The position numbers and the translations under genes are program-made. From NCBI GenBank assembly GCA_964604895.1, contig CAZSAI010000002.1, positions 1-37,966 of the forward strand: a stretch of DNA of 37,966 nt, written 5' to 3'. The DNA is from an uncultured Planctomycetia bacterium (GTDB taxonomy: Bacteria > Omnitrophota > Gorgyraeia > Duberdicusellales > Duberdicusellaceae). Within the stretch, counting starts at the first letter, position 1; the number at the start of each line of letters is the position of its first letter. Below, one piece after another: positions 8,265-13,766 of this stretch. The notes under the pieces were generated by a model. That model was not told where the DNA came from. It searched no databases and saw only the letters and a list, made by a program, of their open reading frames with translations.

Positions 8265-11200
8265 ATGGTAATTCCTAGAGGAAAAGTAAAATTTATTTTT
8301 TTAATTTTTCTTCTCTTCTTTCCCTCTCTCTTTTACGCTCAAAGCCCAAAATATCTTACTAGAGTATATGCTTATCAGGGAGAATTTGATATATTTACTA
8401 AAGATAAGACTGTTACTATTTCTTCCGGTCAATACTTAGAGATAAGAGAAGCTCATCCCCCTCTAGGTCCTTTTTATTTTACAAAAGAGAAAAGAGTCCC
8501 CTCTCTTAATAAGTCAAAAAAAGTTAATAAATATAGGTATTTTTCTTATAGTCCTCTTGTTAGGTCTAATCCTTCCAGGTATATCACTAGAGTCTATTGT
8601 TTTGAGGGAGAGCCCCTTTATGTGTTAGCTCAAGGAAAAAAAATAGTTCTTAAACCAGGAGAGTATACAGAGGTAAGAGAAGGCAAGTTTCCTCTTTCTC
8701 CTCAAAAGTTTACTAAAGGCTTAAGTAAAGAAGAAGGAGAAGAAAAATTAGAACCTAAAAAGGTAAGAAAAGAAAGAGTAAGGAAATTAGAAAAAGGAGT
8801 TGAGGCTTTTAAGAAGAAAAGAAAAAAACTTCCTAAGTATATTACCAAGGTATACTGTTATGAAGGAGCAGTAGAAGTCTGGGGTAAGAAGAAGAGAGTT
8901 TTATTATTTGCTGGAGAGTTTACTCAGGTAGTAGAGGGTCAGGAACCGACTCCTCCTTCTTCAGGAGAATCCCCACCACCCCCACCACCCCCACCACCTC
9001 CACCTGAAGAGGAACTTTCTATAACCTCTGTTTCTCCTTCTCAAGTTGGTCCAGGCTACTCCGGGACATTTACTATCGAGGGTACAGGATTTAAAAGTGG
9101 AGCAAATGTCTTTATCTGCGGAGGAGATATTACTATCAGCTCTGTTAATGTAGTCTCAAGCGGAGAGATTTCTTTAAACTTAACTGTTTCTTCTTCAGCT
9201 TCTTCCGGCCTAAGAGATGTAACTGTAACTAATCCTGATGGAGAAAGCTATACTCTTTCTTCAGGATTAATAATAAGCAATAAGCCTACTATTACTAATT
9301 TGGCTCCCAATTCTTTACATCAAGGAAGGCAGAACGAGGATATAGTAATAACTGGAACAAATTTCCAGACTGGAGCTGTAGTTTCTTTTTCAGGTACAGG
9401 TATTACCATTAATTCTACCACAGTTAATTCTTCTACTCAGATAACCGTAAATATAAGCATAAGTTACGGAGCTTCTTTAGGCACAAGAAATGTAGTAGTA
9501 ACTAATCCCGACGGAGGAAGTTTCACCTTAACTGGGGGCTTTAGTATTACTAAAGGAAATTATGTTTATGTAGCTAATCTTTTTGATGATAATGCTACTA
9601 TAATTGATACTTCTGATAATACGGTGGTCTCAACCATTTCTTTGGGAGATAGTCCTGCCCACGGAGAGGTTACTCCTGATAATAGTTATGCCTATATACC
9701 TAATATAAATACACATACAGTCTCAGTAATCTCTACTGCAACTAATACTATTGTAGCTACTATTAATGTAGGAGATTCTCCGGAATTCTTAACAGTTCAT
9801 CCTAATGGAAATTATGTCTATGTTTCTAATACTGGGGATGGTACTATATCTGTAATAGATACCTCTACAAATACTGTAGTTAATACTGTTAATACTTCTA
9901 ATCCGGCTGATCCTACCGACCAACCTATGGGTTTGGATGTCTCAGGAGGTAAGTTGTATGTAGCTTTAGCCTCTGATAATCAAGTGAAAGTTTTTACTAT
10001 CTCTGGTTCTAACTTGACTCTTTCCGCAACTATAAACTTAACCGGTACTAATCCTTATGGATTGAAAGTAGACCCCCAAGGGACCTATGTCTATGTAGCT
10101 AATCGGAATAGCGATAATGTCACAGTCATAAGGACTTCTGATAATGGGATTCAGACTACTGTAAATGTAGGGGATTATCCTCGCTGTTTAGCTATAACTT
10201 CTGATAGTAGCACTATCTATGTTACCAATGAGTGGGCAAATACGATTACTAAGATTACAGCTGGAGGACTCTGGCCTACCTCTAATTTAGCTGTGGGAAA
10301 TTCTCCTATAGGCATAGGGATTGAGCCCAATGAGGATTATCTTTATGTAGCTAATAAAAATGATGATACAGTAAGTGTGGTTAAGCTTGCTACTTATAGT
10401 GTAGATTCTACTTTAAATGCCGGAGATGGAGCTTGGGCAATCTCTATAAAAGACCCGGGGACTTCGGATTCTTTAAAACGAGCTAATAAGAAGGAAGTAA
10501 ACATAGGAGATATTATTACCTATGCTATAACTTTAAATAATAATCAGACTGGCACTATCTTTGGAGTGAGTCTGGTAGATTATTTACCTCCAGGTTTTAA
10601 GTATATAAAAGGTTCTTCTCGTTTGGATGGAGAGCTGATTGTACCTACTTACTCTGGGGGTCGGTTAATTTATAGTATAGGAGATATAAATTCAGGCACA
10701 ACCAAAGTCCTTAAATATCAGGTAAGAGTCTCCTCAGGGGTTAGTTTTGGACTCTATACTAACAGAGCTCAAGCCTCAGGTATTTTGGGTGGTAATCCTT
10801 ATAATTTTCCTCAAGCAAGCTTTACAGTTAAGGTTGTGCCTGATCCTATATTTGATTTAGGTACGATTATTGGTAAAGTATTTGTAGACTCTAACAATAA
10901 TGGCATTCAGGATAAGGGCGAGAGAGGTTTAGGAGGAGTGAAAATAGTTACAGAGGAAGGTATAGTCCTCACTACTGATAAGAATGGGAAGTATCATATC
11001 CCTGGGCTCTGGCCTCAAGACCATCTTTTAAAGTTAGATACCCGGAGTCTTCCTCAAGAGTATAAACTGGCTTCCAGAAATCCAGTATTAGTCCATATAA
11101 CTGAAGGGCTTTTATCCAAAGTTAACTTTGCTTTGGTTCCTAGGGATAAAGATAAGGCTATAAGAGAAAATAAGTTTAACCTCCCTTTACTTAAGGAGGA

Positions 11201-13766: not shown

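Follow-up and report, generated by a model that had tools for sequence, protein, structure and literature searches.

Introduction

The described systems that come closest to the one reported here are the type V secretion systems, the wall-binding barrel proteins (Deinococcus SlpA and the OmpM type), SprA from the secretion system of type IX (T9SS), and the ushers FimD and PapC. We compared with them a protein of 1833 aa encoded in a 37,966-nucleotide stretch of ordinary chromosome from an uncultured bacterium (GTDB phylum Omnitrophota; contig CAZSAI010000002.1 of assembly GCA_964604895.1), hereafter the window. The open reading frame (ORF) lies at 8265..13766 (+), begins with ATG and closes with a stop codon. 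The C-terminal part of the protein, about 860 aa, is a module of a widespread, unnamed family of very large outer-membrane beta-barrels; it is preceded by a DUF11-SdrD_B domain pair (the cassette) and by an N-terminal head. On balance, we lean towards the view that the protein is the single-chain, or fused, form of a widespread surface-display system of double-membraned (diderm) bacteria, in which a type V-like barrel would act as both translocator and anchor.

Like the type Va autotransporters, the protein combines a Sec signal peptide, an N-terminal passenger and a C-terminal barrel with a beta-signal, and no accessory genes accompany it. The type Va barrel has 12 strands in about 280 aa, against at least 34 predicted strands in about 860 aa here; a factor of about three had been given in an earlier note on this DNA, made by a model from the letters and an ORF list, and it holds. 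The autotransporter beta-domain (PF03797) was matched neither by the whole protein nor by its C-terminal 883 aa (the latter searched to E ≤ 10). In the model of cassette plus barrel, DSSP assigns no helix between the cassette and the first long strand, unlike the alpha-helical linker of type Va. Type Va also differs from the present family in its lack of the two-domain beta-sandwich cassette before the barrel, often joined by an OmpA domain, and of split two-gene forms.

Those split forms resemble the two-partner (type Vb, TpsA/TpsB) systems, in which an operon likewise encodes a giant repeat exoprotein and an outer-membrane barrel protein, both Sec-dependent. However, the barrel is not Omp85-like, the giant has no N-terminal two-partner secretion (TPS) domain, the coupling element (the cassette) sits at the C-terminal end of the giant, and the gene order is giant then barrel, with translational coupling. 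No POTRA, ShlB or TPS match was found in the barrel proteins or giants scanned. In intimin and invasin (type Ve), too, a single system holds a barrel, a stalk of Ig-like repeats and a domain that binds peptidoglycan in the periplasm, but in the family described here the passenger is N-terminal and the barrel C-terminal, the wall binder is OmpA-like rather than LysM, and the barrel is unrelated in sequence. In short, no known type V barrel is related to this one, which exceeds them in size about threefold.

In SlpA and OmpM, as in many family members, a wall-binding domain at the N-terminus precedes a very large barrel at the C-terminus (30 strands in SlpA). The template modelling (TM) score to SlpA is only about 0.23, however, and there is no sequence similarity; the wall binder is OmpA-like, SLH domains and coiled coils are absent, and the family is coupled to giant adhesins. 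SprA (36 strands) and FimD/PapC (24 strands) are very wide barrels made of one chain, through which folded or Ig-fold proteins pass; they need a plug, which in ushers is a beta-sandwich inserted in the barrel sequence. In contrast to them, the family shows no sequence or profile similarity, no T9SS C-terminal-domain signal, no T9SS partners, no chaperone and no pilin polymer. Neither LptD, MtrB/PioB nor SprA was matched by the window module in Pfam, NCBIfam or PDB sequences, and their Foldseek TM scores are 0.31 or lower; models of the TonB-dependent transporter (TBDT) plug (PF07715), the 22-strand TBDT barrel (PF00593) and the NCBIfam TBDT families gave no match in the module either.

A 2026 preprint still ranks the 36-stranded SprA first in size among known barrels; it also notes that AlphaFold DB leaves out proteins longer than 1,280 residues. 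In Deinococcus radiodurans, three barrels of 38 strands have been predicted (PMC9388160, SI Table S3). One Gram-negative adhesin is described in bioRxiv 10.1101/2025.04.25.650565 with an "OmpA-like anchoring domain" and no stated export route; searched for barrel, outer membrane and secretion, the main text contains none of these terms. The architecture of that adhesin equals that of the upstream giants in our split loci, such as the one in Lysobacter (10 DUF11 domains and, at the C-terminus, an OmpA domain). The link of such giants to a dedicated downstream barrel gene, and the existence of fused forms, are new from this analysis. Literature searches found neither the barrel family nor its coupling to fibrillar adhesins described, nor any secretion system that matches.

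A widespread family of very large barrels

The C-terminal 883 aa of the window protein gave no Pfam match even at E ≤ 10, no NCBIfam match and, as a single sequence, no match among PDB sequences. This agrees with the earlier note, which had recognised no named family in the region. With a family profile, the sole match among PDB sequences was a chitoporin (a porin), which is marginal (E = 0.04), and weak OMP_b-brl and OmpA_membrane matches occur in relatives. In RefSeq, members are named "TonB-dependent receptor", "OmpA family protein" or "hypothetical protein".

Relatives of the module are numerous: at least 979 were found by a word-indexed search, and exhaustive phmmer yielded 2,878 matches at E ≤ 1e-3 and 794 at E ≤ 1e-30 (a database of 1.84 billion cluster representatives, each match being a cluster at 50% identity). 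A module with thousands of homologues is not a chance ORF. When one genome per GTDB species was scanned, at least 577 species genomes carried a barrel-module locus. The family spans about ten phyla, with carriers in the Omnitrophota, Acidobacteriota, Nitrospirota, Planctomycetota, Desulfobacterota, Bdellovibrionota and Campylobacterota and in the Alpha-, Beta- and Gammaproteobacteria. Cultured carriers include Stenotrophomonas, Lysobacter, Pseudoxanthomonas, Methylobacillus, Rivihabitans, Leucothrix and Orbus, and homologues are also encoded on large plasmids or chromids of Sinorhizobium meliloti, Eleftheria terrae, Vibrio campbellii and others. The closest full-length relative (GCA_016932855.1) is 69% identical in the barrel and has the same architecture and other neighbours. 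Homologues in S. meliloti T073 pSymA (L171, 10001-12769) and in a 2.06-Mb record of V. campbellii (H3) sit in stretches for which the plasmid gene table lists no feature.

Among 254 relatives, 207 carry the module at their extreme C-terminus and 185 have Y, F or W as the final residue. A terminal aromatic residue is the classical signal of outer-membrane proteins that depend on the machinery for beta-barrel assembly (BAM). The window protein ends in GVFFKLKGMY, and its relatives in GWFINLVGKY, GPFVRLTGKF and similar termini. The family motifs DPDKYYPVYGD, TGGSLYYL and GYNFTDF..D are all present in the window module together with this terminus. As judged from sequences and predicted structures, the family has a BAM-type C-terminal beta-signal and the generic features of a BAM-dependent outer-membrane barrel. 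What precedes the module varies in length, from close to zero (proteins of about 930 aa in total, made up of signal peptide and module) to 6,690 aa, and in relatives it is built of adhesin-stalk domains.

A subgroup, mainly Omnitrophota and Planctomycetota giants, carries an extra tail of about 130 aa after the module (P0001-P0008 and about 35 other relatives; loci L009, L011, L036, L044, L050 and L069). Because this tail follows the module, the aromatic beta-signal is not at the protein end.

Predicted structure of the barrel module

The features of the module are given below, with module residues 1-883 corresponding to aa 951-1833 of the protein.

11115..11195 (+), short linker from cassette to barrel, aa 951-977, with low predicted local distance difference test (pLDDT) values and poor conservation
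11196..11939 (+), N-terminal beta-domain of the barrel module, module residues 28-275, aa 978-1225, from alignment conservation and DSSP strands
11388..11459 (+), invariant loop DPDKYYPVYGDSS (DPDKYYPVYGD), module residues 92-115, with invariant P, Y, P, Y, G and D columns
11940..13763 (+), meander of 34 consecutive long antiparallel strands, the predicted barrel wall, module residues 276-883, from DSSP of both models and Foldseek
13734..13763 (+), C-terminal beta-signal GVFFKLKGMY, from comparison of relatives' termini

AlphaFold2 (AF2) predicted the barrel module alone as all-beta (alignment of 63 sequences; mean pLDDT 80.5, predicted TM score (pTM) 0.74), and the cassette together with the barrel (aa 731-1833) with pLDDT 86.4 and pTM 0.82. 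The 34 wall strands, each 9-16 residues long, follow one another from module residue 276 to the C-terminus, and most show amphipathic alternation. When the strands are counted from the C-terminal end, the long loops (9-25 residues) all lie on one and the same alternate side, and the turns opposite them have 2-7 residues, mostly 2-4. In the models, this pattern is that of a transmembrane meander with short periplasmic turns. Foldseek against the PDB returned whole-chain matches with probability 1.0 to SlpA, MtrB, LptD, TonB-dependent transporters, FimD/PapC and SprA, all at TM 0.31 or lower. Since many outer-membrane barrels are matched at low TM, the fold class is that of a large outer-membrane barrel with no specific solved relative.

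That the region forms no membrane barrel at all, being a soluble beta-rich domain (a solenoid or sandwich array) or simply a wrong AF2 model, is very improbable to us. Mean-field direct coupling analysis aimed at the partner of the last strand (338 sequences; effective number, Neff, 293) gave a regional signal only and thus no confirmation of barrel closure, and the models were judged from DSSP strands, confidence values and Foldseek matches. Against such a domain, the beta-signal is conserved across the family, the hairpin meander keeps its turns of 2-4 residues apart from the long loops, which are all on the opposite side, Foldseek reaches probability 1.0 with many outer-membrane barrels, relatives show the weak OMP_b-brl and OmpA_membrane matches, and the single PDB match of the profile is a porin. 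The earlier note had named two findings that would speak against its own proposal of a large barrel outside the named families, a full-coverage match to LptD, an usher or a TBDT, and a soluble beta-solenoid; no such match appeared, and AF2 and Foldseek give an outer-membrane barrel instead of a solenoid.

The N-terminal beta-domain of about 250 aa, with three long strands and a beta-rich stretch or insert, is the most conserved part of the family alignment and contains the invariant motifs DPDKYYPVYGD, TGGSLYYL, GSEKV and DYEIDY..GR. It could be a plug or a docking domain. The proposal of a barrel of about 870 aa in the earlier note therefore stands as regards a very large module of outer-membrane barrel type (AF2, Foldseek, terminal aromatics), but its first 250 aa or so are not simple wall, and the domain that they form could be the plug that the note had not seen. 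In the barrel-only model the DPDKYYPVYGD loop has a pLDDT below 50, and in the model with the cassette it rises to 84-91. This ordering suggests a defined contact between cassette and barrel, with the loop as a candidate docking site, in two predictions whose alignments differed.

The DUF11-SdrD_B cassette and its coupling to the barrel

10455..11114 (+), membrane-proximal cassette of DUF11/CLIPPER (CnaA-like) and SdrD_B (CnaB-like) domains, aa 731-950, with the conserved junction VVPDPIFDLGTIIGKVF

The DUF11 domain was identified at aa 738-838 (E = 2.2e-11) and SdrD_B at aa 871-935 (E = 2.7e-8), and the junction between them follows the motif DPxFDxGTIIGKVF. The cassette has a pLDDT above 90 in the AF2 model of cassette plus barrel, and its Foldseek matches are domain pairs of Gram-positive adhesins and pilins: UafA, SdrD, the basal pilin EbpB and SpaD. 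Homologues of aa 731-950 occur in 80 of 88 loci at 40-50% identity, while the barrel reaches only about 30%.

The cassette is present in exactly one full-length copy in 66 of 80 genome loci. It shares a chain with the barrel in 120 of 259 family proteins, and 119 of these 120 have a single cassette, even one protein of 7,612 aa. Its offset from the barrel takes a few values, namely about 8-60 aa (as in the window), about 213 aa, about 260-290 aa and about 500-600 aa; the last is that of loci with an OmpA domain about 235 aa before the barrel. In split loci the cassette forms the C-terminal end of the giant. For a reciprocal test, metagenome contigs were scanned with cassette junction motifs and 80 loci were kept. 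A barrel lies downstream of the cassette in all 62 evaluable loci, those with at least 2.4 kb of downstream sequence; the remaining 18 end too early. The DUF11-SdrD_B pair is thus a dedicated, single-copy base cassette, and no evaluable locus lacks its coupling to the barrel. The earlier note had counted the two domains among the passenger modules, a placement that the single copy, the fixed offsets and the 62 of 62 loci overturn.

Split and fused gene arrangements

The 80 genome loci were sorted by the position of the large chain relative to the barrel.

25 of 80 loci, split: an upstream ORF of 1,000 aa or more stops only a few bases from the barrel start, commonly overlapping it by 4 or 1 bp
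15 of 80 loci, fused: at least 1,000 aa lie N-terminal to the barrel in the same chain
19 of 80 loci: the barrel ORF runs off the 5' end of the locus
11 of 80 loci: an upstream ORF of 500-999 aa
10 of 80 loci: neither the split nor the fused class

The barrel gene stands directly 3' of a giant in Noviherbaspirillum, a Planctomycetota metagenome-assembled genome, Leucothrix and another genome, overlapping it in three of the four; these giants abound in DUF11/CLIPPER, SdrD_B, DUF7933, CshA repeats or propellers. In Lysobacter enzymogenes (L063), a giant that contains 10 DUF11 domains, DUF7507 and Big_9 and has an OmpA domain at its C-terminus is followed after 4 bp by a barrel protein of 1,269 aa. 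The Methylobacillus giant has 7 DUF11 and 3 SdrD_B domains, and there the barrel protein begins with the OmpA domain. Further examples were found in Eleftheria, Phyllobacterium, Nitratireductor, Roseovarius and Croceibacterium, and RefSeq plasmid records show a giant labelled "DUF11 domain-containing", "SdrD B-like" or "OmpA family" and then the barrel gene. Both partner proteins carry Sec-type signal peptides on inspection. The OmpA domain can close the giant C-terminally (L063) or stand N-terminally in the barrel protein (L068, P0064, P0120), and where found it is always between cassette and barrel. PF00691 (OmpA_C-like) is absent from the window protein; relatives from Betaproteobacteria and elsewhere have it. 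The linear order is kept across phyla: head or stalk, cassette, optional OmpA domain, optional spacer, barrel. This order is encoded by one gene or by two translationally coupled genes, and only the gene boundary shifts.

The class of Omnitrophota barrel proteins of about 1,550 aa always has an ORF of 520-670 aa upstream, with no Pfam match (L013, 6170-7999; equivalents in L015, L020, L021, L023, L028 and L029). This ORF may be a lineage-specific partner.

The arrangement bears on the idea of an usher-like platform, in which the barrel would export or assemble other Ig-fold proteins, possibly in several copies. FimD and PapC are among the Foldseek matches (TM up to 0.31), the beta-domain is embedded near the start of the barrel sequence as an usher plug would be, and the cassette resembles a basal pilin. 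However, no third conserved gene was found among the 80 loci: there is neither a chaperone gene nor a set of small subunit genes. PF00577 was not matched, in line with the earlier note, which had seen neither a POTRA domain nor an usher-like motif, and single chains that fuse barrel and passenger are common. We give this idea little credence.

On a Phyllobacterium plasmid (L169, 8074-15652) the barrel protein is annotated in RefSeq as "TonB-dependent receptor", as it is in L172, L173 and L174. Only in L169 is the barrel gene followed by exbB-exbD-tonB and a siderophore-interacting protein gene. The Phyllobacterium "TonB-dependent receptor" matched no NCBIfam family at E ≤ 1 and no TBDT model of Pfam, and its label is probably a propagated mis-annotation. 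TonB dependence was rejected, there being no model support and a single adjacency to exbBD-tonB among the annotated loci.

A role as an uptake or diffusion channel would make the barrel a plugged transporter of TBDT/SusC-like layout, for which attached or neighbouring repeat proteins capture substrate. The succession of a CarboxypepD_reg/SdrD_B-like domain, a conserved beta-domain and a barrel fits such a layout, as do the RefSeq labels of several members, the one exbB-exbD-tonB cluster and the lactonase-type propeller of the window passenger. Nevertheless, no TBDT plug or barrel model of Pfam or NCBIfam matches any tested member, the adjacency to exbBD-tonB is that single case, and the partner genes encode adhesin-type stalks rather than binding lipoproteins. 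We consider a channel of this kind improbable.

N-terminal parts of the window protein

8265..8339 (+), Sec-type signal peptide, aa 1-25, MVIPRGKVKFIFLIFLLFFPSLFYA followed by QSP, with predicted cleavage after FYA, by inspection of the sequence
8349..8969 (+), three repeats of about 50 aa (YxTxVYxxxGE...), aa 29-80, 104-155 and 189-235, read from the sequence
8973..9005 (+), Pro11 linker of exactly 11 residues, aa 237-247
9012..9524 (+), two Ig-like modules (choice-of-anchor Z / TIG-like), aa ~250-420, from Pfam and NCBIfam
9537..10439 (+), seven-bladed YVTN/lactonase-type beta-propeller, aa ~425-725, from Pfam and NCBIfam

The three N-terminal repeats are separated by Lys/Glu-rich linkers and are kept in a relative (P0121/L001). 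Pfam returned only a sub-threshold Cupin_2 match for them, and the suggestion that they are FecR-like domains was dismissed, as they have no similarity to the FecR protein encoded upstream. The Ig-like modules match CoaZ_rpt_PGGG (NF058597; E = 1.4e-23, 2 stretches) and Qn_am_d_aIII (PF09099, 2 stretches), and the propeller matches TIGR02276 (E = 5.4e-40, 7 stretches) and PF10282 (E = 1.4e-20). The description in the earlier note is borne out for this part of the protein: the ORF agrees exactly with the ORF listing of the window, the signal peptide, repeats and proline linker can be read directly in the sequence, and Pfam and NCBIfam agree with the reported order of two Ig-like modules, seven-bladed propeller, DUF11 and SdrD-B. 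An identical sequence of the 1833-aa protein is already in public collections, without a name.

Proposed mechanism

OmpA-like domains bind peptidoglycan and are hence periplasmic. The DUF11/CLIPPER domains, on the other side of the cassette, are described as extracellular stalk domains of fibrillar adhesins in bioRxiv 10.1101/2025.04.25.650565. If the OmpA domain is periplasmic and the stalk extracellular, the chain must cross the outer membrane between them, at or near the cassette. The barrel would then be both export pore and fibre socket, because it is the sole membrane element of the system. In the surface-display system that we favour, the chain would be exported by Sec, and BAM would insert the barrel into the outer membrane. 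The head (in the window, the repeats, Ig-like modules and YVTN propeller) would reach the cell surface through the wide lumen of its own barrel. The cassette would remain docked on the conserved N-terminal domain and the invariant loop of the barrel, filling or plugging the pore and bearing the load, and the OmpA domain, where present, would tie the base to peptidoglycan.

The window protein is the minimal fused version of this layout, with head, cassette, a linker of 20-30 aa and barrel, and no OmpA domain. By analogy, the fused form may function like an autotransporter and the split form like two-partner secretion. The likeness to autotransporters pointed out in the earlier note is reasonable, and the split two-gene versions strengthen it, but exposure of the N-terminal part and its passage through the barrel are inferred.

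Several observations weigh against this proposal. OmpA domains lie N-terminal to the barrel, and the barrel-proximal part at least is therefore periplasmic; for the same reason the whole N-terminal part could stay there. Some members consist of signal peptide and barrel only, with no large neighbour, and the barrel may thus have a function of its own. The window passenger is short (about 700 aa), has a propeller in place of a long stalk and lacks the OmpA domain. As to the models, the better second AF2 prediction may stem from its different alignment rather than from the presence of the cassette. The wall may comprise either 34 strands, preceded by a plug-like domain, or 36-38 strands into which a domain is inserted, and the cassette may be in the lumen or at the periplasmic face.

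If the N-terminal domains did stay in the periplasm, the protein would be a connector between outer membrane and cell wall or a periplasmic scaffold, with the barrel a mere anchor as in SlpA/OmpM. The barrel-only model finds its best Foldseek match in SlpA, where a wall-binding domain at the N-terminus is joined to a 30-strand barrel at the C-terminus, many members have the OmpA-like peptidoglycan-binding domain N-terminal to the barrel, and we infer rather than observe surface exposure. In contrast, stalks of CnaA/CnaB-type domains of up to 6,690 aa are extracellular according to the literature, and fibres of that length exceed the periplasm; at least 34 strands are far above what an anchor needs; and the window protein has no wall-binding domain in Pfam or NCBIfam. 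Such a connector seems unlikely to us.

Tentatively, we also put forward a wider possibility, that the family is the outer-membrane translocon of an unrecognised secretion and anchoring pathway, found in many phyla, for giant isopeptide-type adhesins, and that it represents a distinct class of secretion system rather than a variant of type V. Here a barrel of about 34-38 strands would pass folded or partly folded stalk domains, and the CnaA/CnaB-like cassette would lock into the pore as plug and load-bearing base, with the optional OmpA domain reaching to the cell wall.

Genomic context of the window

A lipopolysaccharide (LPS)-core and 3-deoxy-D-manno-octulosonate (Kdo) gene cluster occupies positions 211-5857 of the window (GT9 heptosyltransferase, PfkB-type kinase, KdsB, KdsA, KdsD and a KdsC-like HAD protein). 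Together with a SurA-like chaperone gene at 17055-18458 (-), it marks the host as a diderm with LPS. The ORF at 860-1762 has a weak deoxyhypusine-synthase-like match (E = 2.8e-10). Directly downstream of the adhesin-barrel gene, at 13895-16860, are the genes of the gamma, alpha and beta subunits of a pyruvate/2-oxoacid:ferredoxin oxidoreductase, after which the SurA-like gene follows. A small delta-subunit ORF might lie in the 370-bp gap at 14432-14801. A promoter and terminator scan found nothing above the shuffled background.

Directly upstream (5915-8112) are a FecR-domain gene and a gene for a CHASE2-GGDEF diguanylate cyclase. Elsewhere, CHASE2 was found only in L014 (4891-6900), L139 (10546-11718) and Eleftheria terrae (L170, 1-199), FecR in one other locus, and GGDEF-domain matches in seven loci. 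FecR and CHASE2-GGDEF were rejected as conserved partners, the association being sporadic among the loci in which it can be judged; in most, the giants fill the upstream flank. Even so, the adhesin may be under cyclic di-GMP control. Near the system in a Nitrospirota locus (L005) are one PilZ gene and three genes of the response-regulator-GGDEF type.

Biological significance

The scanning rule of cassette junction motif, barrel motifs and beta-signal leads to the system in about ten phyla, and RefSeq labels of the "TonB-dependent receptor" type on its members are unsupported by current models. Barrel surveys based on AlphaFold DB have probably missed the family, because most members exceed the 1,280-residue limit. 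Culturable carriers are at hand in Lysobacter enzymogenes, Stenotrophomonas, Methylobacillus, Sinorhizobium meliloti (pSymA), Eleftheria terrae and Vibrio campbellii, and the S. meliloti and V. campbellii strains with homologues could serve as experimental systems. If the wider possibility of a distinct secretion class is true, the barrel, with about 34-38 strands, would be as large as or larger than that of SprA. The constant cassette, and the barrel gene that in many bacteria directly follows the gene of a giant adhesin, point to an undescribed route by which double-membraned bacteria export and anchor giant surface fibres.

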